In this document: piece by piece, positions 4,030 through 63,579 of the stretch
How the letters are laid out: each line of letters opens with the position of its first letter
Position numbering within the stretch: the stretch's first letter is position 1
Sequence record: OQ031072
DNA from: Shigella phage SFPB
Direction: 5' to 3' (one strand)
DNA length: 64,000 nucleotides
The notes under the pieces: model-generated
The model's input: only the letters and a program-made list of their open reading frames with translations
Databases searched by the model: none
Told to the model about the DNA's origin: nothing
Program-made: the position numbers and the translations under genes

Positions 4030-4807
4030 GATTCTGGAAGAAAAAGGTATTGACGAAGCATTCATGCTGAACACCGTTGAGACTCTTGCTATCATTATGC
4101 GTAGCAACTCACTGTCAGGAAAATTTATCCCTGAATCTCTGCGTGTTGTAAAAAACGCTGTAGAGAATGACGAAGATTTCCGTAAAGAGGTTGAATACCT
4201 GCTGTCTAATAAGACTGATGCTCTGAAGACCATCTTCATTGGTGTTGATGCCTTTGCAGCATACATCTTTGATGAAATGTATTCAGGTGGATACATCCAG
4301 ATTACTGAGCAGGGTATTAAAGAACTTGATAACATGAGTGATGAAGACCTTCTGAAAGGTATTTGTACACCAGTTGCTGCTGTAATGGCATCGCTAGAGA
4401 AGCGTATGAATGATAAGTCACCACGTTATGCAAAACTGGATTGGGGCTTTGATGAAGTCTCTGACAAGGCAATTCAGTACGCTGATGAGACAATGAATAA
4501 GCTGTCAGAGATTACTAATGGTCTCTCTTTAGACCCTATTCAGGTTAAGGTAACTTCACTGTTAAACGCTATCTTTAGTATCATGGGTATCCATGCTTTA
4601 CTTGAAGTGTCAAAAATGTTAGAGTCTGACCCAAGCTTTGTAGAGAGCATTTCACAAGGTGCTCATACAGCAGCACTCGGGGATGTATTTAGCCAAACTG
4701 GTGCAGCAGTTCTTAGCACCAAGATTGCAATCAACTTCGGTGAAGAGTTTGTTCAGCAGTTAGAAGCAATGTCTGAGCGTGAACTCACTGGTTCTCAACT
4801 ACAATAA
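4013..4807 (+). CDS. hypothetical protein
   Basis: ORF track 264 aa. Confidence 0.45.
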   Translation: MKTVNEILEEKGIDEAFMLNTVETLAIIMRSNSLSGKFIPESLRVVKNAVENDEDFRKEVEYLLSNKTDALKTIFIGVDAFAAYIFDEMYSGGYIQITEQGIKELDNMSDEDLLKGICTPVAAVMASLEKRMNDKSPRYAKLDWGFDEVSDKAIQYADETMNKLSEITNGLSLDPIQVKVTSLLNAIFSIMGIHALLEVSKMLESDPSFVESISQGAHTAALGDVFSQTGAAVLSTKIAINFGEEFVQQLEAMSERELTGSQLQ

Positions 4808-5608: not shown

Positions 5609-5809
5609 GTGTTGAAGATGAGAGAGAATAACTTTAAAGTAATTGACCACCGTACAGTGGAACTCTCATCTCTTTCCAAAGAAGTTATGATGGAGCGACT
5701 TGAAAGGGTCGCTTCAAGAAGGAAAGAGATTGCAGAAGAAATCCATGAGCTTGATAAGATTGAAAACGGTCTTAAGGCAGAACTACAACGAAGAGGTGTG
5801 AATGGCTAA
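5609..5809 (+). CDS. hypothetical protein
   Basis: ORF track 66 aa, coiled-coil-like. Confidence 0.35.
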   Translation: MLKMRENNFKVIDHRTVELSSLSKEVMMERLERVASRRKEIAEEIHELDKIENGLKAELQRRGVNG

Positions 5810-7487
5810 ACAGAGAAAACTGAAAGATGCTGGAACATTTGTAGGTCACTGTGCATGTCCACGCCCTCAATGTTTATCTTCAGATGCAGGTTCTATATAT
5901 CGTCATGATGACGGTTCATATTCAATGACATGTTTCAGTTGTGGAAAAGGTTTTCCAGAGTGGGATTTTGATAAAGGGCAGATTGTGAGTACTCATACTT
6001 CAGGTTCAGAGAATAAAAACCGTACATTTCGTGGTATGGATTTAGATGATGTGAAAGAAAACCTAGAAGCAATGGATTTAAAAGACAGGAAGATTCCTGC
6101 AAAAGTCCTTGAGCGCCTTGGTATTAAAGTTGATATTGACGACAATGGTGACATTGATGCGCACTTCTATCCAACATACAAAAAAGATGAAGATGGTAAG
6201 TTGCAACATGTAGGTTATCGTGTTCGTCACAAATATCCAGATGATTATCACAAAGAGCACTTACGTGGGAAGTTGAAAGACTTTTCTGGTGGTGTCGGAG
6301 ATATCAAAGGTGAACTGGCTATGTTCGGTTCATGGATTGCTCCAGAAGGTGGTAACCGTCTTTTCATCTGGGAAGGTGAGATGGAATGTGCTACAGCAAT
6401 CTACATGACTTCTTTAGCAATTAAAGATAAGTCTAGACGTAAGAATTACTGCCACGTTTCTGTACCATCCGGTGCTAATGTTAAGTCTATCAAAGAGAAC
6501 TATCAGTATATTACTTCCTTTGATGAGATTTACCTATGCTTTGATAATGATGAAGCAGGGGCTAAAGCAACTAAGGAAGCTGCTGGTATCTTACCTATTG
6601 AAAAAGTAAGACTGTTCCAGTATCCTGAAGGTATTAAAGACCTTAGTGAGTGGTGGACTAAGTTCTTCAAAGACAAAGATACAGTCTTGGAAGGATTTAA
6701 ACAACGAATCTACAATGCACCTCGTTACTGCCCTGCTGGTATCAAGAACTTTGCAGATGGTTTCGATGCTATGAAGAATCGTGGTCAGATTCCTTTAATT
6801 CCTTTCCCAGATTCTTTCGGGGATTTGAATAAGTTGACTTATGGCGGGTATGGTTTAGGTGAGATTACAACCCTTGCTGCACCTTCATCTGTAGGTAAGT
6901 CTGCATATACTCGTGAAATGATTTACAAAGCATGGAAAGATACTGAGTACAACATCGGTGTAATTCCTGTAGAAGACACTTACGAAGAACTTATGGAAAT
7001 GCTCTGTGCAATCCATCTTAGTAAGCAGATTTCAGAGATTCCTTACGATGAGCGTAATTGGGATGAGATTAAGGTTGCACATGCTGAGTTGTCAAAAGGT
7101 CGTCGTATTCACATCGTAGACCACCAAGGGGCAATTGACCAAGATAACCTGCTGGAGTTTGTTGACTATCTGGTTAACAGCCTTGATTGTAAGATTATCA
7201 TTCTTGACCCTATTACATTGGCGCTGTCACGCTCTGATACAGATGAAGAAGAAGTTCTGTCTGAGTTACTTCGTCGCTGTAAGCGTTATCAGTATGCTCA
7301 GGTAAACGTGTGTCACGTTCGTAAGAGTGCAGGTGGTCAAAAGGCCAACTCTGAAGGTGGTGATATTTCTGAAGAAGATATCAAGGGTTCTGGTGCATAC
7401 TTCCAGATTTCCATGAACAACATTTTGCTTATGCGTAACAAGGTTGACCCAGACCCTGTTAAAAAGAACTTGACAAAATCAAGTTAA
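5802..7487 (+). CDS. DNA primase-helicase (T7 gp4-like), frame-disrupted near 3' end
   Basis: Zn-finger CxxC...CxxC, TOPRIM (EGEMECA, FDNDEAG), Walker A AAPSSVGKS, Walker B IIILDP; frame ends KKNLTKSS* while helicase C-terminus continues in -1 frame. Confidence 0.85.
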   Translation: MAKQRKLKDAGTFVGHCACPRPQCLSSDAGSIYRHDDGSYSMTCFSCGKGFPEWDFDKGQIVSTHTSGSENKNRTFRGMDLDDVKENLEAMDLKDRKIPAKVLERLGIKVDIDDNGDIDAHFYPTYKKDEDGKLQHVGYRVRHKYPDDYHKEHLRGKLKDFSGGVGDIKGELAMFGSWIAPEGGNRLFIWEGEMECATAIYMTSLAIKDKSRRKNYCHVSVPSGANVKSIKENYQYITSFDEIYLCFDNDEAGAKATKEAAGILPIEKVRLFQYPEGIKDLSEWWTKFFKDKDTVLEGFKQRIYNAPRYCPAGIKNFADGFDAMKNRGQIPLIPFPDSFGDLNKLTYGGYGLGEITTLAAPSSVGKSAYTREMIYKAWKDTEYNIGVIPVEDTYEELMEMLCAIHLSKQISEIPYDERNWDEIKVAHAELSKGRRIHIVDHQGAIDQDNLLEFVDYLVNSLDCKIIILDPITLALSRSDTDEEEVLSELLRRCKRYQYAQVNVCHVRKSAGGQKANSEGGDISEEDIKGSGAYFQISMNNILLMRNKVDPDPVKKNLTKSS

Positions 7488-7792
7488 CGAAATGTCGTCG
7501 TCATGGTAAATCAACTGGTATTGCTGGTCACACTTGGTACAATCCAGATACAGGCCGTCTTGTAAAGGCTGCTGGATGTGGTGTTGATATTGATGGTGCA
7601 GCAGAGAATATTCGTCAGCAGTTTGGTATTGGTGAGGCTGAAGACCATTATGATGACTCTATGCCACACTATGAAGATGTTGATTTTGACCGTGAATCTG
7701 GAGAGATTTACACACAAGAGCAACGTGAAAGCTCCACCATTCCACCTGTGATTAACGAGGATAATGATGACTGTCCGTTCGAAACTGATTGA
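7463..7792 (+). CDS. primase-helicase C-terminal segment (continuation in -1 frame)
   Basis: Open frame translating ...KLTKCRRHGKSTGIAGHTWYNPDTGRL..., resembling T7 gp4 C-terminus; no start codon of its own. Confidence 0.6.
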   Translation, partial: KELDKIKLTKCRRHGKSTGIAGHTWYNPDTGRLVKAAGCGVDIDGAAENIRQQFGIGEAEDHYDDSMPHYEDVDFDRESGEIYTQEQRESSTIPPVINEDNDDCPFETD

Positions 7793-8045
7793 TAGTTATC
7801 TGAAGGAGGGTTTTGAACCCTTCTATTCAGAAGAAAGTAGAAAAAAATTTGTAAAAGAGTGCTTGACTAAGATAGAGCAGTTCGGTAAAGTACTCATCAA
7901 CAAGGGACATGAAGTAAAGTTTGAGCACTTATCAAAAGATAATGTTGAGCAGTTTGCATTAGCGATTGATGGTTTATCTACAGTTTACATCTTTACCTTG
8001 ACTAATAAACATTTTGAATATGAAATATATCGGAGAGATTCATGA
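7764..8045 (+). CDS. hypothetical protein
   Basis: ORF track 93 aa. Confidence 0.35.
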   Translation: MMTVRSKLIDSYLKEGFEPFYSEESRKKFVKECLTKIEQFGKVLINKGHEVKFEHLSKDNVEQFALAIDGLSTVYIFTLTNKHFEYEIYRRDS

Positions 8046-8179
8046 AACATTCTAAAGCATTCGAGAAAGTATTTGGTGATTCCATGAAAGCAACTGCTGG
8101 TAAACCTGCTGAATACTATGTACAGAAGCGAGTTCGCATGGGTAAGACGGCTCGTAAAGCAGCTAAGAAATCTGCTTAA
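8042..8179 (+). CDS. small basic protein (45 aa)
   Basis: ATG 8042 preceded by GGAGAG; MKHSKAFEKVFGDSMKATAGKPAEYYVQKRVRMGKTARKAAKKSA; below track size cutoff. Confidence 0.3.
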   Translation: MKHSKAFEKVFGDSMKATAGKPAEYYVQKRVRMGKTARKAAKKSA

Positions 8180-8184
8180 AGTGT

Positions 8185-8213
8185 TTGACAAGGGAGTACG
8201 AAGTCTGTAAGAT
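8185..8213 (+). promoter_or_regulatory. sigma70-like promoter TTGACA-N17-TAAGAT with hairpin spanning spacer and -10
   Basis: Sequence match to consensus; inverted repeat GGAGTAC/GTACTCC. Confidence 0.45.
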
Positions 8214-8264
8214 TGTACTCCTTGATAGTTGAGTTGAAAGTTAATTTGAGAAAGAGGTATTAAA

Positions 8265-8672
8265 ATGTCTAAAGTTGTTAAAATGAAAGCTCCGGTAGAG
8301 AAGTACAATGGTCAAGAACGTGAGACTCTGCGTTACCTACTGAAAGATGTTTGGTTCTATTACCTGAACACTATTCCACGTCCTCAAAAGGGTAAATCTG
8401 TGGATAAGCATTTTCCGGGCAAAGATTGTAACTACAGCGTTTCAATTCTGGCAAAAGATGGTAACAAGCTCTTTAAAGAGTTCACCAAATCCAAGCGCAA
8501 TGCTGAAGGTTGGGATAAAGTTACTACAGAGGCTGTTGATGCAGATGACTTCGAAGAGAAGTTTGGTTGTGAGCCTCCGTTTGAAGCTGACACCTATCAC
8601 ATCCTGAAGGTTAGCCGTTCAGCAGCATATAAAGACGGTGCTGTGTGGTCAGCAAAACAGAGTTTCCTGTAA
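8265..8672 (+). CDS. SSB-like protein, N-terminal part (T7 gp2.5-like)
   Basis: ORF track 135 aa; sits in replication module; downstream ORF in -1 frame carries LVPY and acidic tail. Confidence 0.45.
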   Translation: MSKVVKMKAPVEKYNGQERETLRYLLKDVWFYYLNTIPRPQKGKSVDKHFPGKDCNYSVSILAKDGNKLFKEFTKSKRNAEGWDKVTTEAVDADDFEEKFGCEPPFEADTYHILKVSRSAAYKDGAVWSAKQSFL

Positions 8673-9124
8673 TGCTGGTTGAAGAAATCAACGGTAAGCG
8701 TGTTGCAGTTAAGCAGCCTATGAAGAAAATCAAGGCAGCAAAATCTGATAAGCACGATGATGATAAGACTTACGATGTAATTCATCCAGATATTGCAGTT
8801 GGTAACGGCTCATTTGGTAGTGTGATTCTGGCGACTCACTTCTACACATTTGAAGGTAACGTTCTGACCAAGCCAATTCAGGAACAATTTATCATTGATA
8901 CTCTGGTTCCTTACACTGGTGGTACTGGTGGTGCTACTGAGACTGAACTGGATGAAGATGAACTGGCAATGCTTGGTCTTGCAGGTGTTGAAGACAACGG
9001 TGAAATCACTGAAGAAGATGCAAAAGATTCTGGTGATGAAGGTAAAGGTGGTGATGACGATGACGACGACCTACCAAACCCAGATGATGACGACGAAGAT
9101 GATTTCGAAACTGACGACGAGTAA
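8645..9124 (+). CDS. acidic C-terminal protein; probable SSB C-terminal part
   Basis: C-terminus GGDDDDDDLPNPDDDDEDDFETDDE; LVPYTGGTGG resembles T7 gp2.5; internal ATG at 8672 overlaps upstream stop (TAATG). Confidence 0.45.
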   Translation: MVSKTEFPVMLVEEINGKRVAVKQPMKKIKAAKSDKHDDDKTYDVIHPDIAVGNGSFGSVILATHFYTFEGNVLTKPIQEQFIIDTLVPYTGGTGGATETELDEDELAMLGLAGVEDNGEITEEDAKDSGDEGKGGDDDDDDLPNPDDDDEDDFETDDE

Positions 9125-9159
9125 TAGTCAGTAACTACTACAAAGCCCTGTACAGACGT

Positions 9160-10227
9160 ATGGGGCTTTTTCGTATGGAGAGTACAATGGAACAATACAC
9201 CTTAACAAAGCTCCCAGAGAGCGTTACACACGTCTTTATTGACTCTGATAGCATTGCTTACAAAGGTGCTTGTGTAGTTGAAAAAGCAAAGTACAAGTAT
9301 GTGAATAAAATCACTGCTGAAGAATCCGACGCTTTTGATAGTGCAAAACTGGCAGCACAATGGCTGTCTGACCAAAGAGTTTTAACTGAAGAGTTAGGAC
9401 TTGACTTTGATGAAGATGAATGGGAAAGACAGACTTGGAAGGAGGCTAAGAGTGAAGCTGAAGCAATTATGGCTACACAGCAAGTTCTTCAGGAGTGGTT
9501 GAAAGTCGTTGGTAAAGAACGCAAATGGATGGGTTACCTTACTGAGAAAGGTGTTCACAAACACAAGGATATCAAAGGTCTTGAACACCAATATCAAGGT
9601 AACAGAAAAGAAGCTGTAACACCTACACACCTAGTTGCTTGTCGTGAGTATCTTCTGTCACGACCAGAGTTTAAGCTCTTAAAAGGGGGCTTCGAAGCAG
9701 ACTCTATCGTTATTGCAAAAGCTGAGAAGATGGGGAAAAAAGCTGCTCTGATGAGTATTGATAAAGACCTTCGTCAAGCTGAAGGAACTTACTGTATTGA
9801 TATGACTTACGAGAAAGCTCCATTAATTTTCATTGCAGATAATAACGTTGGTGAGATTTGGGATTGCCCTATCAAATCTAAACCGAAAGCTAAGAAGACA
9901 GTCGGAGTAGGTTTTAAATTCCTCTGCTATCAAGCTGTAGCAGGTGATAATGCAGACAACTACTTCGGTTTAAAAGGTGCTGGTAAGGTTGCGGTGATGA
10001 ATGCACTGGAAGGTAAAACTACCTACAAAGAGTGCTTAGATGCCATCTATGAACTTTATGCTAAGAAAGAGTCATACACTTATGAATCGTGGGATGGTCA
10101 GATTGTGACAAGAACTCCACTAGAATTAATGGAGCAACACTTCTGGATTGCTTATCAAGAACGAAATCCTAAAGATGATTTTACGTTTAAAAAATACAAT
10201 TGGGAGCCAGTTATGAATGAAGATTAA
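9160..10227 (+). CDS. 5'-3' exonuclease / flap endonuclease-like
   Basis: HVFIDSDSIAYKG and SIDKDL motifs typical of FEN/T7 gp6-like nucleases; replication-module context. Confidence 0.55.
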   Translation: MGLFRMESTMEQYTLTKLPESVTHVFIDSDSIAYKGACVVEKAKYKYVNKITAEESDAFDSAKLAAQWLSDQRVLTEELGLDFDEDEWERQTWKEAKSEAEAIMATQQVLQEWLKVVGKERKWMGYLTEKGVHKHKDIKGLEHQYQGNRKEAVTPTHLVACREYLLSRPEFKLLKGGFEADSIVIAKAEKMGKKAALMSIDKDLRQAEGTYCIDMTYEKAPLIFIADNNVGEIWDCPIKSKPKAKKTVGVGFKFLCYQAVAGDNADNYFGLKGAGKVAVMNALEGKTTYKECLDAIYELYAKKESYTYESWDGQIVTRTPLELMEQHFWIAYQERNPKDDFTFKKYNWEPVMNED

Positions 10228-10717
10228 AGGATTTGGAAATTGCCCTGTTTATGGACATTGGGTTTCACTGTGCGGGGAAATTGACCCCGCTAACTATTTT
10301 GGTTTTGTCTATTTAGTATACTGTAAGAAAACTGGACAATATTATATTGGGAAGAAACAATTTAATAACGTCACTAAGAAAAAGGTTGCTGGAAAGACCA
10401 GACGTAAAGTCGTGACAAAAGAAAGTGATTGGATGACTTATCAAACATCTTCTGAGTACATTAAGAAGGATATTGAATCTTTTGGTGAAAAAGAGTTTGA
10501 CTTCTACATCATCCAGACTTACTATACGCGAGGTGGCTTAGTTTATGGCGAAGCTAACCTACAACATAAGTTTGACGTCATGACAAAAAGGATTGACTCT
10601 AAGCTTCGACTCTTCTACAATGCGAACATTGCAGCAATCAAGTTTCTTACAAAAGAGACTTATGATGAAGCTGAGAAGAGAATCACTAAAATCATGAAAC
10701 TTAATGAGAGAGTTTAA
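10217..10717 (+). CDS. GIY-YIG endonuclease-like protein
   Basis: GFVYLVYCKKTGQYYIGKK matches GIY-YIG motif. Confidence 0.55.
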   Translation: MKIKGFGNCPVYGHWVSLCGEIDPANYFGFVYLVYCKKTGQYYIGKKQFNNVTKKKVAGKTRRKVVTKESDWMTYQTSSEYIKKDIESFGEKEFDFYIIQTYYTRGGLVYGEANLQHKFDVMTKRIDSKLRLFYNANIAAIKFLTKETYDEAEKRITKIMKLNERV

Positions 10718-56664: not shown

Positions 56665-56670
56665 AATATT

Positions 56671-56746
56671 AGCAGTGTAGCATAACTGGAAATGCACCAG
56701 CCTCTGAAGCTGAAAGATTAAGGTTCAAATCCTTATACTGCTGCCA
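56671..56746 (+). tRNA. tRNA-Gln (anticodon CTG)
   Basis: Acceptor AGCAGTG/TACTGCT; loop CTCTGAA; G73; CCA. Confidence 0.55.
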
Positions 56747-56777
56747 CTTCTAAGGGTTCTTACGAGAGTCCTTAAAT

Positions 56778-56854
56778 GTGGCCTTATCATAAATGGATAA
56801 TGACCCATGCTGTGAACATGGTCTATACGGGTTCGATTCCCGTAGGTCACCCCA
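56778..56854 (+). tRNA. tRNA-His (anticodon GTG)
   Basis: Anticodon stem CCATG/CATGG, loop CTGTGAA; C73; CCA. Confidence 0.6.
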
Positions 56855-56861
56855 ATTTAAT

Positions 56862-56937
56862 AGCTCAATTAGCTTATATGGTTAAAGCGCGTGTCTGAAA
56901 AACATGAGAACAGGGTTCAAATCCCGATGGGCTACCA
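56862..56937 (+). tRNA. tRNA-Phe (anticodon GAA)
   Basis: Loop CTGAAAA; A73; CCA; T-stem weak. Confidence 0.5.
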
Positions 56938-56953
56938 ACTTTATAGGTGCATA

Positions 56954-57688
56954 ATGAAAGAGATGACAGAACAAAGTAAAGAGATTTTTAATCTCCTTAA
57001 AACCGGTAATGGTTTCTCAAACCCTCTTATTACTGGTGCAGCAGTTCTTGGTGGTACAGTTGCCGCTTCTCAGTCATTAGTAACTTCTATTGGTTCTGTA
57101 TCAGACCCAGCCACACAGCAAATTCTTATTGCTGCTGGACTGACAACAGCCTTATTAGGAAGCTTCACAACAAGCCTTGGAAGTACAACTTCAACGACAA
57201 GTACACTCACTGAGTATGGACAAAAGTCTGTAGATGAGTTTTCACAGCGTATGCAGGTAGCTAAAGGCTACTCTAACGTCATGGGAGCAGTAGGTGAGCA
57301 AGTTGGATGTACACCATTTAGTGGCATTATGGGTGTAGCTACTGAGTACGGCAATAAAGCGATGGATTTGATTAATACCTCCATAGACGCTGTAAACAGC
57401 GTTCTAAGCGATTTGCAAGATGCAATCGATAAAGGACTAGGGACAATCTCTGAACTCGCTACACAGGCTGTTACAGCGATTAATGAGGGCATTGCAAAGA
57501 TTACTGCATATGCTAACGAAGTAGCTCAGATGATTGCAGATGAAGCAGCATTGATTGCAGAATACCTGAAAACAAATATTAATGGTTTCCTTGCAAATGT
57601 TCTACCAAGCTGGTTTGATGATTCATGTAAAACTGGTGTGATTGATACTATTGCAACTCCAGAGATGAAAGAAGCTCTGAACAAATAA
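56954..57688 (+). CDS. hypothetical Ala/Ser/Thr-rich protein with N-terminal hydrophobic segment
   Basis: ATG 56954 just after tRNA-Phe (track start 56891 overlaps tRNA). Confidence 0.45.
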   Translation: MKEMTEQSKEIFNLLKTGNGFSNPLITGAAVLGGTVAASQSLVTSIGSVSDPATQQILIAAGLTTALLGSFTTSLGSTTSTTSTLTEYGQKSVDEFSQRMQVAKGYSNVMGAVGEQVGCTPFSGIMGVATEYGNKAMDLINTSIDAVNSVLSDLQDAIDKGLGTISELATQAVTAINEGIAKITAYANEVAQMIADEAALIAEYLKTNINGFLANVLPSWFDDSCKTGVIDTIATPEMKEALNK

Positions 57689-57689
57689 T

Positions 57690-57781
57690 GGAAGATTAAC
57701 CCTAAAGGTAAGGGAGCAGTTTGCTAAACTGCCAGTAACCGAGAAATCGGCGTACCAGTTCAAGTCTGGTATCTTCCTCCA
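57690..57781 (+). tRNA. tRNA-Ser (anticodon GCT), long variable arm
   Basis: Acceptor GGAAGAT/ATCTTCC; anticodon stem GCAGT/ACTGC, loop TTGCTAA; CCA. Confidence 0.6.
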
Positions 57782-57787
57782 AATTAT

Positions 57788-57863
57788 GTGTCGGTGTCAG
57801 AAATGGTTATGTGCCTGTCTGCAAAACAGGTTTATGAGGGTTCGAGTCCCTTCCGATACTCCA
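57788..57863 (+). tRNA. tRNA-Cys (anticodon GCA)
   Basis: Anticodon stem CCTGT/ACAGG, loop CTGCAAA; U73; CCA. Confidence 0.6.
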
Positions 57864-57895
57864 ATTTATATTAATATCTCTCTCAAAGTTATTAT

Positions 57896-58289: not shown

Positions 58290-58295
58290 TTCTAT

Positions 58296-59753
58296 TTGCA
58301 GAGGTGCTTAATGGACTTAAATGTTATTAAGCAGAAGCGAGTGGAAGATGTAAGGAAAGTCCTAGCAGGTGAGTTGGGGCTTTCTGAAGAAGTAAAAGAT
58401 ATTATCAAATCCTTTGGTAAAGACCCCTCTAAATTCCTTCCAACTCAAATTCTGACTTTATTAAGGTACACCCCAGACCAAGTAAGACTCATCTTTAAAT
58501 TGATGACTGACAAGAACTATGTAGCTCCACAGCCTGGCTCTCAAGAGGTATTCTTGAACACTAATGCTGACTTGGTACTATATGGTGGTGCTGCTGGTGC
58601 TGGTAAGACTGCTGCCCTATTAATGGACTCACTAAGGTTTATTGAAGACCCAAACTATAACGCTGTTTATTTCCGTCGAAATACAACACAGTTACAAGGT
58701 GGTTTGTGGCCTGCGGCTAAGAAGTTATTTGGTAAGTTTGGTGGAGTTCCACATGAACAGAAAATGACTATCACTTTCCCTTCTGGAGCAACTATCAAGT
58801 TTACTTATTTGGAACTTGAGAAACACTCAGAAGGTCACCAAGGTATCGAATACTCAGCTATTTATTTCGACGAAGGTACACACTTCTCGGCTTCACAGAT
58901 TTCATATCTTCAGACACGTTTACGTTCTGGTGCTGAAGGTGACTCATATATGAAAATCTCAATGAACCCAGATAGAGACCACTTTATTTATGATTGGGTA
59001 GAACCTTTCCTAGATGATGCTGGATATCCAGACCCAGAGAAGTGCGGTAGGATTCGTTGGTATGTTATGAATGATGGTGTCATGGTTTCTGATTGGGATA
59101 GAGATAAAATTCTTGAAATGTTCCCTCTTGAGATTCCTCAAACATATACCTTTATTTCCGGTACAATTGATGACAACCCTATTCTAGATTTCCTTGAACC
59201 TAAGTATCGTGGTAAATTAGAAAACAACACACCAGTTAACGTTGCACGTTTACGTTTTGGTAACTGGAAAGCTCGTGCTGAAGGTTCAAACTATTGGCAA
59301 AGACAATGGTGTGAAATTGTTGATAGTGTTCCAGCAGATGTATTTGACGTAAGAGCATGGGACTTAGCAGCAACATTACCTTCTGAGGTTAACCCTAACC
59401 CTGACTGGACAGCAGGTGTTAAAATGGGTAAATCTAAAAAAGATGGTTGCTATTATGTGATTAACGTAGTAAGATTTAGAGATAGACCTTCTGGAGTTGA
59501 AACACAAATTAACCAAACTGCTGAAGGTGATGGTAAGCGCACAGGTATTTTTATCCCTCAAGACCCCGGCGCTGCTGGTAAATCCTACGCAACCTCCTTA
59601 TTAGAAAACTTGCTGAGAAAGGTTTCCGAGCAAGAGCTAAACCAACAAATAAAGATAAAGTCACCCGTTTTGCGGGTTTCTCTGCTGCTTCTGAGGCAGG
59701 ACTTGTCAAAATTGTTAGAGGCTCTTGGAATGAAGCATATTTCCAAGAACTAG
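58296..59753 (+). CDS. terminase large subunit (ATPase domain), frame-disrupted before nuclease domain
   Basis: Walker A LYGGAAGAGKTA; DPGAAGKSYA motif; frame ends in atypical sequence while terminase C-terminus continues in -1 frame. Confidence 0.8.
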   Translation: MQRCLMDLNVIKQKRVEDVRKVLAGELGLSEEVKDIIKSFGKDPSKFLPTQILTLLRYTPDQVRLIFKLMTDKNYVAPQPGSQEVFLNTNADLVLYGGAAGAGKTAALLMDSLRFIEDPNYNAVYFRRNTTQLQGGLWPAAKKLFGKFGGVPHEQKMTITFPSGATIKFTYLELEKHSEGHQGIEYSAIYFDEGTHFSASQISYLQTRLRSGAEGDSYMKISMNPDRDHFIYDWVEPFLDDAGYPDPEKCGRIRWYVMNDGVMVSDWDRDKILEMFPLEIPQTYTFISGTIDDNPILDFLEPKYRGKLENNTPVNVARLRFGNWKARAEGSNYWQRQWCEIVDSVPADVFDVRAWDLAATLPSEVNPNPDWTAGVKMGKSKKDGCYYVINVVRFRDRPSGVETQINQTAEGDGKRTGIFIPQDPGAAGKSYATSLLENLLRKVSEQELNQQIKIKSPVLRVSLLLLRQDLSKLLEALGMKHISKN

Positions 59754-59911
59754 AAGGTTTTTGTGGCGATGGTCGTACTAAGGATGACCAAGTGGATGCT
59801 ACCAGTGATGCTTTCAACAGTCTAAACGAAGTTAAACTATTCAAGCCACCTTCAATGGGTGCTCATACAGATATTATGAAGAGTAATCCATATCAGGGGC
59901 TAAGACGCTAA
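59582..59911 (+). CDS. terminase large subunit C-terminal segment (continuation in -1 frame)
   Basis: Translation ...RKLAEKGFRARAKPTNKDKVTRFAGFSAASEAGLVKIVRGSWNEAYFQELEGFCGDGRTKDDQVDATSDAFNSL... with terminase KxDDxVDA..AF motif. Confidence 0.65.
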   Translation: MLRNLLIRKLAEKGFRARAKPTNKDKVTRFAGFSAASEAGLVKIVRGSWNEAYFQELEGFCGDGRTKDDQVDATSDAFNSLNEVKLFKPPSMGAHTDIMKSNPYQGLRR

Positions 59912-62219: not shown

Positions 62220-62230
62220 GGTGAGTAAAA

Positions 62231-62443
62231 ATGAGTTCGAATATCTTCAGACTTGCTGACAGATTATTCAACCAACCTTTACTAGCTACAGAATCATTAG
62301 CCCACTCAGCAGCGACTTATGTTAATAACCGCTTGTTAGGTGAGGTACAAGCAGCAGTAAACTTCGATAAGCCAAAAGGTGAAGCAAGGAGTCTTTTAAA
62401 GTTAAAGAAGACATTGCTATCATCCCTATTATGGGTGGCCTAA
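62231..62443 (+). CDS. prohead protease N-terminal segment (upstream frame)
   Basis: MSSNIFRLADRLFNQPLLATE... resembles N-terminus of S49-type phage head proteases; main protease frame is -1 relative. Confidence 0.5.
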   Translation: MSSNIFRLADRLFNQPLLATESLAHSAATYVNNRLLGEVQAAVNFDKPKGEARSLLKLKKTLLSSLLWVA

Positions 62444-63579
62444 CACATCGTATGACCTTCATGGATGCAATGTGTACTGGTGGACTAAGTTCTTATGAAG
62501 GTTTACGCAGAGGCTTTGACGAAGCCCTAGCAGATGAGTCTATTAAGACTATCGTGCTGCACGTTGATTCAGGTGGTGGTGAAGCGTCAGGTTGTTTTGA
62601 GTTGGCACGTCACATCATGGCTTCAAGAGGCCAAAAGAAAATTATTGCTTATGTAGATGAGTTTGCTTGCTCTGCTGCATATGCTCTTGCATCTTCCGCT
62701 GAAGAAATTATTGCATCACCAGATGCAGATGTTGGTTCAATTGGTGTGATTATGGTTCACCAAGAATTAACTAAAGCATTTGAAAAGAATGGCGTAACTA
62801 TTAACGTTATTAAAGCTGGTGAATTTAAAGGTATGGGTTCCCCATTCCAAGCATTATCAGAAGAAAGCAAGAATAGACTTCAAAAGAGAATTGATGACAC
62901 TTACAAGACTTTTACTAGTTTTGTTGCAGACTCACGTAATATCTCCGAAGAAGCTGTAAAGAATACTGAGGCGAATGTTTATTCTGCTCAGGAAGCTCTT
63001 GAACTTGGTTTAATTAACTCTATCATGTCTCAAGATGATTTCTTAAATTACTTACAAGGTTCTGAAGAAGCTCCTGTAAGTTTAAACACAAACAATTCAG
63101 GTGAAGAAATGACTGAACAAGAAAAGCAAGAACTAGAAGCTCTGCGTCTTCAGGTTGCTCAAATGAAAGCTAAGGAACAGGAAGCAGTTCTTACAGATTT
63201 AACTGGTAAGGTTTCTGCATCTGCTGAAGCTTTTGGGTTTGATGCAAAAGAAGCTGCAACAGCTATTTTAGGTGCTGGTCTTGACAACCCTCTGAGTGTT
63301 CTGTTTATGAATGCTATGGAAGGTGCTAACCAGAAACTTAATGAAACTATCGCGTCCCATGCTTCTGCCATGTCTGAGAAGGATTCTGAAATCACTAAGC
63401 TGAAAGAAGCTGCTGGTGCTGTTCTGGAACACTCAAACGCTATGGAAGAACTTGGCAATGACGGCGAAGCAGAAGTGGATGATGGTAAAGATACCACTCC
63501 AGAAGCAAATGTTAATGCTAACGCTGACCAACGCAAACTGGCTCTCCAGAATGCTTTGAATACTCTTATCAAGAAATAA
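62431..63579 (+). CDS. prohead protease (S49/ClpP-like) with C-terminal coiled-coil scaffold-like region
   Basis: VLHVDSGGGEASG and CSAAYALASSA motifs; coiled-coil C-terminus; frame open upstream to 62383. Confidence 0.75.
   Translation: MGGLTHRMTFMDAMCTGGLSSYEGLRRGFDEALADESIKTIVLHVDSGGGEASGCFELARHIMASRGQKKIIAYVDEFACSAAYALASSAEEIIASPDADVGSIGVIMVHQELTKAFEKNGVTINVIKAGEFKGMGSPFQALSEESKNRLQKRIDDTYKTFTSFVADSRNISEEAVKNTEANVYSAQEALELGLINSIMSQDDFLNYLQGSEEAPVSLNTNNSGEEMTEQEKQELEALRLQVAQMKAKEQEAVLTDLTGKVSASAEAFGFDAKEAATAILGAGLDNPLSVLFMNAMEGANQKLNETIASHASAMSEKDSEITKLKEAAGAVLEHSNAMEELGNDGEAEVDDGKDTTPEANVNANADQRKLALQNALNTLIKK

Follow-up and report, generated by a model that had tools for sequence, protein, structure and literature searches.

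The window, the whole 64,000-nucleotide stretch of DNA analysed here, carries on its plus strand two overlapping open reading frames, situated between the genes for primase/helicase (5802-7789) and exodeoxyribonuclease (9160-10227) and close to the DNA polymerase gene. ORF1 (8265..8672) starts with ATG and encodes 135 aa. ORF2 (8645..9124) encodes 159 aa from a mechanically assigned GTG start and lies in the -1 frame with respect to ORF1. The preliminary description, made from the letters of the window, had these coordinates, strand and frames right, and we confirm from the sequence the 28-nt overlap as well as the TAATG at 8670-8674 within it. ORF1 and ORF2 both align, at ~98% identity, to one single protein in related phages, and therefore the pair is not a chance arrangement. 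The features of the locus are as follows.

8185..8213, plus strand: candidate sigma-70-like promoter 5' of the SSB gene, TTGACA-17-TAAGAT (10/12, a consensus match only)
8252..8257, plus strand: Shine-Dalgarno-like AAGAGG, 7 nt 5' of the ATG at 8265
8265..9124, plus strand: gene for a gp2.5-type ssDNA-binding protein (SSB), one gene, 286 aa with the missing C put back; orthologues Sf17 gp079, Michonne gp28 and ESh20 URY12474; PHROG 3877
8265..8672, plus strand: ORF1, SSB residues 1-133, then two out-of-frame codons (F L) and a TAA stop made by the frameshift
8645..9124, plus strand: ORF2, in the true frame from 8666 on (P V M L V E E ...), with the conserved GNGS and LVPY motifs and a predicted disordered acidic tail that ends in DDFETDDE
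8645-8665, plus strand: first seven codons of ORF2, a read-in out of frame
8663..8669, plus strand: lesion site, TTTCCTG in the window and TTTCCCTG in relatives, the C3 run being short by one C at 8666-8667
9143..9172, plus strand: probable intrinsic terminator 3' of the SSB stop codon, hairpin AAGCCC...GGGCTT followed by a T run

A ribosome-binding site and a terminator are annotated in Michonne at the places equivalent to AAGAGG and to the hairpin at 9143..9172. The hairpin was read directly from the sequence; a simple terminator scan passed over it because its loop exceeds 8 nt. Sigma-70-like consensus sites are no more numerous than expected from shuffles. Just 3' of the exonuclease gene, ORF 10217-10717 has as its positional counterpart in Sf17 a CDS called 'NAD synthetase', with a note that records a GIY-YIG homing endonuclease. 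On a contig of a Shigella flexneri assembly, the gene in a similar place matches SegE_GIY-YIG, and the product name in Sf17 looks like a mis-annotation.

Megablast of positions 7700-9700 matched 257 phage records, the best of them from Mooglevirus (Ounavirinae, Felix O1-like) phages of Shigella, Citrobacter and E. coli. Over this region identity is 99.3% to ESh20, 98.6-98.8% to Sf13/Sf15/Sf17 and 95.9% to Michonne. Across 25 kb the best identity is ~96.5-97%, and the window therefore represents a distinct member of Mooglevirus. ESh20, Michonne, ESh22 and Sf17 each have one CDS here (846-864 nt; 281-287 codons), annotated as 'hypothetical protein' and placed between two small ORFs 3' of the primase/helicase gene and the exodeoxyribonuclease gene, with no separate downstream gene in any of the four. 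This bears out the earlier proposal of one SSB-like gene cut by a one-base frameshift.

The same holds much more widely. A tblastn search with the repaired 286-aa protein matched 301 phage records, 265 of them with at least 80% coverage, and in 59 of 60 records sampled across the ranking the alignment crosses the junction in one piece; the arrangement that would speak against a single gene, relatives with two separate ORFs, was looked for and did not turn up. The sole exception in the sample is Salmonella phage GE_vB_7A (MG969404.1, 52670-54015), frameshifted near residues 184-215. This record is marked UNVERIFIED and is unannotated, and its break is probably another sequence-quality problem. 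We rejected a recurrent slippage hot spot, as this only other broken copy breaks at ~184-215 and not at 133. P0008, a 'partial' homologue of 207 aa in a Shigella flexneri assembly, was likewise rejected as a second broken copy, since there the end of the contig cuts the gene.

Which base is missing can be read from the alignment. The preliminary description had placed the lesion in the A run at 8654-8657, where one extra A would fuse the frames. Adding an A to GCAAAACAG indeed works arithmetically, yet AAAA is identical in the window, ESh20, Michonne and ESh22 (alignment) and in Sf17 (pairwise blastn), and the A run was rejected as the lesion. The sole length difference in the alignment is that between TTTCCTG in the window and its longer counterpart in relatives, which in ESh22 takes the form TTTTCCTG. 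Since AAAA is the same in all and only the C run differs, the missing base is a C of the C3 run at 8666-8667, 8-12 nt away from the A run; pairwise blastn against Sf17 and ESh20 also places it there. The junction in orthologues accordingly reads ..AVWSAKQSFPVMLVEE.. and not ..AKTEFPVM.., the peptide predicted earlier. Every relative compared reads TAATG within cct gta atg (P V M), with the TAA out of frame; the two coupled genes that had been offered as an alternative are not supported. Among the public sequence searched, only this window has the deletion allele: an exact 40-mer carrying it was not found in INPHARED, nor an exact 38-mer in IMG/VR, GTDB genomes and JGI metagenomes, nor the 135-aa ORF1 product among 153 billion gene calls. 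A control search with the intact allele found 3 IMG/VR contigs.

The locus thus holds a single gene, and its product has the gp2.5 fold. The resemblance to T7 gp2.5 had been noted from a few motifs and is now backed by profile and structure evidence, although direct sequence-profile membership, in PF10991 or phrog_112, is absent and the link is transitive only. Pfam gave no match (E<=1) for ORF1, ORF2, the fused protein of the preliminary description or the repaired protein. Against PHROG the repaired protein matches phrog_3877 ('unknown function') from end to end (E=2.3e-165), with no direct match to phrog_112 and, besides phrog_3877, only an insignificant one to phrog_24666 (E=0.23). With phmmer against PDB sequences it gave only a match of the acidic tail to SAGA factor 73 (E=1.7), which we rejected as spurious. 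A word-indexed search found 13 close relatives; an HMM built from 11 of them retrieved, from 1.84 billion representatives, 59 proteins at E<=1e-3, mostly of 200-245 aa. Of the bridging proteins tested, 6 of 10 match both phrog_3877 and phrog_112 (3e-5 to 8e-14), and one has a sub-threshold match to PF10991 (Enc34_ssDNA-bd). The label of phrog_112 is 'Gp2.5-like ssDNA binding protein and ssDNA annealing protein'. A profile of 54 sequences matches 1JE5, the chain of T7 gp2.5 (E=1e-7), and 4KLK, a DUF2815 protein (0.006), and hhalign of the close-family profile with the T7 gp2.5 sequence alone gives a weak probability of 24% with the same GNGS/GGGS block aligned.

AlphaFold with the 54-sequence alignment reached a pLDDT of 83 overall and >90 for residues 1-218, superseding a run with the shallow 11-sequence alignment (pLDDT 46.6). 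The model shows a gp2.5-type OB-fold core, an OB barrel with an extra helix, followed by predicted disorder from ~221 to 286 in a D/E-rich tail. Structure as well as profile comparison links the protein to gp2.5 and Enc34 SSB; since it exceeds gp2.5 in size, the TM-scores from Foldseek are modest (0.34-0.52). G180 N181 G182 S183, Y217 and F282 are invariant in the 11-sequence family alignment, so that the flexible acidic tail has a conserved aromatic residue, an invariant Phe that is not terminal. The gene also lies in the replication cluster, as would be looked for in a gp2.5-like SSB. The break falls at residue 133/134, within a single folded domain, with core elements on each side of it (DVWFYYL and PPFEA in ORF1, GNGS and LVPY in ORF2), and hence ORF1 and ORF2 are not separable domains.

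In comparison with T7 gp2.5 (the helix-destabilizing/ssDNA-binding and annealing protein, PDB 1JE5) identity is only 12-14%, the length is 286 aa against 232 aa, there are extra N-terminal strands, and the conserved Phe sits 3-7 residues from the C-terminus (F-[EDK]-T-E/D...), whereas in gp2.5 it is the last residue. Identity to the SSB of Enterobacter phage Enc34 (PDB 5ODJ/5ODK/5ODL; PF10991, formerly DUF2815) and to Enterococcus faecalis 4KLK is 10-16%, and unlike the Enc34 SSB family the protein falls below the PF10991 threshold. The protein is best regarded as a divergent branch within the gp2.5-like superfamily, and, judging from the modelled fold, the tail and the genomic context, its biochemical role is predicted to be that of T7 gp2.5 or Enc34 SSB. 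Remote gp2.5 homologues have been described in many phages, with Felix O1 absent from the main text of that study (Lopes et al., 2010; PMC2896510), and in our literature search no paper took up an SSB of Mooglevirus or Felix O1-like phages.

The missing C is not an isolated event. We compared the whole window with the complete genomes of Sf17 (RefSeq) and ESh20, both nucleotide against nucleotide and with every long reference ORF as a tblastn query. Common to both comparisons are 11 isolated deletions and 2 isolated insertions (52320 and 55851). The deletions are these.

3337: CCC to CC, 5' of the DNA polymerase gene
7474-7478: A5 to A4 (GACAAAAATC to GACAAAATC), primase/helicase gene, 5802-7789
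8665-8667: CCC to CC, SSB gene
21028: CCC to CC, intergenic
53336-53338: CCC to CC, tRNA-Lys(ttt), T-arm
53743: C5 to C4, intergenic
56012: shared -1 event, other than a simple shortening of a run (relatives CCAATTTTAGG, window CCAAATTAGG), just 3' of tRNA-Leu(caa)
56509-56512: G4 to G3, tRNA-Gln(ttg), 5' edge
57703-57706: A4 to A3, tRNA-Ser(gct)
59595-59597: CCC to CC (CCTCCCTTA to CCTCCTTA), large terminase gene, 58290-59908
62397-62400: A4 to A3, prohead (head maturation) protease gene, 62225-63579

Three further genes are thereby broken. In Sf17 and ESh20 the primase/helicase has 663 aa; in the window it falls into a part from 5802 to ~7478-7487 and a part at 7448-7789 in another frame, the last ~110 residues lying past the break. 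The large terminase (533 aa in Sf17) is broken at about residue 430, with its C-terminal ~100 residues in the other frame, and the prohead protease (448 aa in Sf17) appears as ORFs 62231..62443 (70 aa) and 62431..63579 (382 aa). All of these genes, and the SSB gene, are intact in relatives that are 96-99% identical. A census against Sf17, covering 2,476 runs of at least 3 bases in 47.7 kb aligned, found 13 runs one base short, distributed asymmetrically between the strands: on the plus strand 12 of 1,380 A or C runs are contracted versus 1 of 1,096 G or T runs. TCCCT is the context in all five CCC to CC events, and together with the A/C asymmetry this looks like a bias of the chemistry or the base-caller. 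A systematic conversion of TCCCT to TCCT was rejected, given that 45 TCCCT still stand in the window. Four of the ~11 shared contractions lie in intergenic DNA; some of these may be real divergence, as real indels are tolerated there.

The comparison turned up other differences and features. At ~28069, inside the gene that corresponds by coordinate offset to Sf17 rIIB, a 9-nt repeat (TGCAAAGAG) differs in copy number and in frame, the window being short of 18 nt against Sf17 and of 9 nt against ESh20. ARAGORN finds 25 tRNA genes in the tRNA cluster (52100-57870) and did not detect, in the gap at 52587-52749, the tRNA-Tyr that in Sf17 lies between tRNA-Asn and tRNA-Asp. Between 34060 and 36630, segments of ~90-100 nt match many intergenic places in ESh20 (for example 1100-1198, 2338-2431, 4226-4319 and 5641-5733) at 86-92% identity; they make up an intergenic repeat that is dispersed among small early genes and may represent promoter or terminator cassettes.

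We consider it highly probable that 8265..9124 is one gp2.5-type SSB gene and that its split reflects a C3 run short by one C, most likely a homopolymer error of sequencing or assembly. An artefact is the best reading because the same type of one-base contraction breaks three other essential genes in the window: with its primase/helicase, SSB, terminase and protease genes all out of action, a genome would be unable to replicate or package, and this makes under-called homopolymers the economical explanation. The pattern is also that of homopolymer-length sequencing errors, with isolated -1 contractions in A3-5, C3-5 and G4 runs, 11 contractions against 2 expansions, and frameshifts in essential genes that are intact in all relatives. 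The sequence as given does carry TTTCCTG, replication slippage is naturally frequent at homopolymer runs, and GE_vB_7A offers an independent break of the same gene, so one could think of a real deletion: a true frameshift mutant whose SSB is made only as a truncated 135-aa fragment. Such a mutant could be a defective genome from a mixed population or a metagenome, for instance, or could carry a recent mutation complemented by co-infecting wild type. We regard a real deletion as unlikely. No propagating genome would be expected to carry four simultaneous knock-outs of essential genes within the same 64 kb, nearly all events are -1 and 12 of the 13 in the census fall in A or C runs, as in technical bias, the allele occurs in no other public sequence searched, and the GE_vB_7A record is itself of doubtful quality.

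It is more improbable still that the split is functional, either as a programmed -1 frameshift (tRNA-Phe moving from UUC at 8664-8666 to UUU at 8663-8665, or a slip on A_AAA) giving full-length and short SSB, or as a two-subunit SSB coupled through TAATG. ORF2 does lie in the -1 frame, U_UUC and A_AAA permit P-site re-pairing in that frame, and stop and ATG overlap; a downstream ORF in the -1 frame with an overlap of a few codons is also what is seen in known programmed frameshifting (tail-assembly chaperones G/GT, dnaX). Unlike in those systems, however, the split is not conserved: in all relatives the frame is open throughout and the flanking bases are the same, and since they keep it open there is no selection for a frameshift signal. 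The overlap at 8645-8672 (in frame 0: gtg tgg tca gca aaa cag agt ttc ctg taa) contains no X XXY YYZ heptamer, and there is no Shine-Dalgarno-like sequence 5' of the ATG at 8672 or the GTG at 8645. The RNA downstream, at 8655-8760, folds slightly better than shuffles (z = -2.08; 5 of 200 shuffles as good), a weak signal for a stimulatory structure. The break would moreover fall inside one confidently folded OB-type domain of the model, not between domains, and in relatives the TAA of TAATG lies out of frame. We give just as little credence to a genuine deletion in a propagating phage that would obtain enough full-length SSB from an unprogrammed or weakly programmed -1 slip of tRNA-Phe on U_UUC (8663-8666) before the new stop, or from the two halves of the OB fold reassembling non-covalently as a split SSB.

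We therefore return to the under-called C3 run. The artefactual origin of the missing C is what the sequence comparisons point to, and the split itself is most likely not a real biological feature. One C would have been dropped at 8666-8667 in sequencing or assembly, and its loss would have brought a TAA into frame and produced two apparent ORFs. The actual phage would express the gene as a single protein of 286 aa, which would coat ssDNA at the replication fork and, like gp2.5, contact polymerase and helicase through its acidic tail.

The main value of these observations is in quality control: the window is an otherwise ordinary Mooglevirus genome with several false frameshifts, and the split ORFs of primase/helicase, terminase, protease and SSB in it are not to be taken as biology. 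There is also a gain in annotation, if a minor one. The SSB gene, which has orthologues in ~300 records, goes under the name 'hypothetical protein' (or 'gp103'/'gp066') in all annotated Ounavirinae records that we examined. On the profile and structure evidence the 286-aa protein and phrog_3877 can be annotated as a gp2.5-type ssDNA-binding protein, and this annotation supplies the replication module of Felix O1-like phages with its missing SSB.
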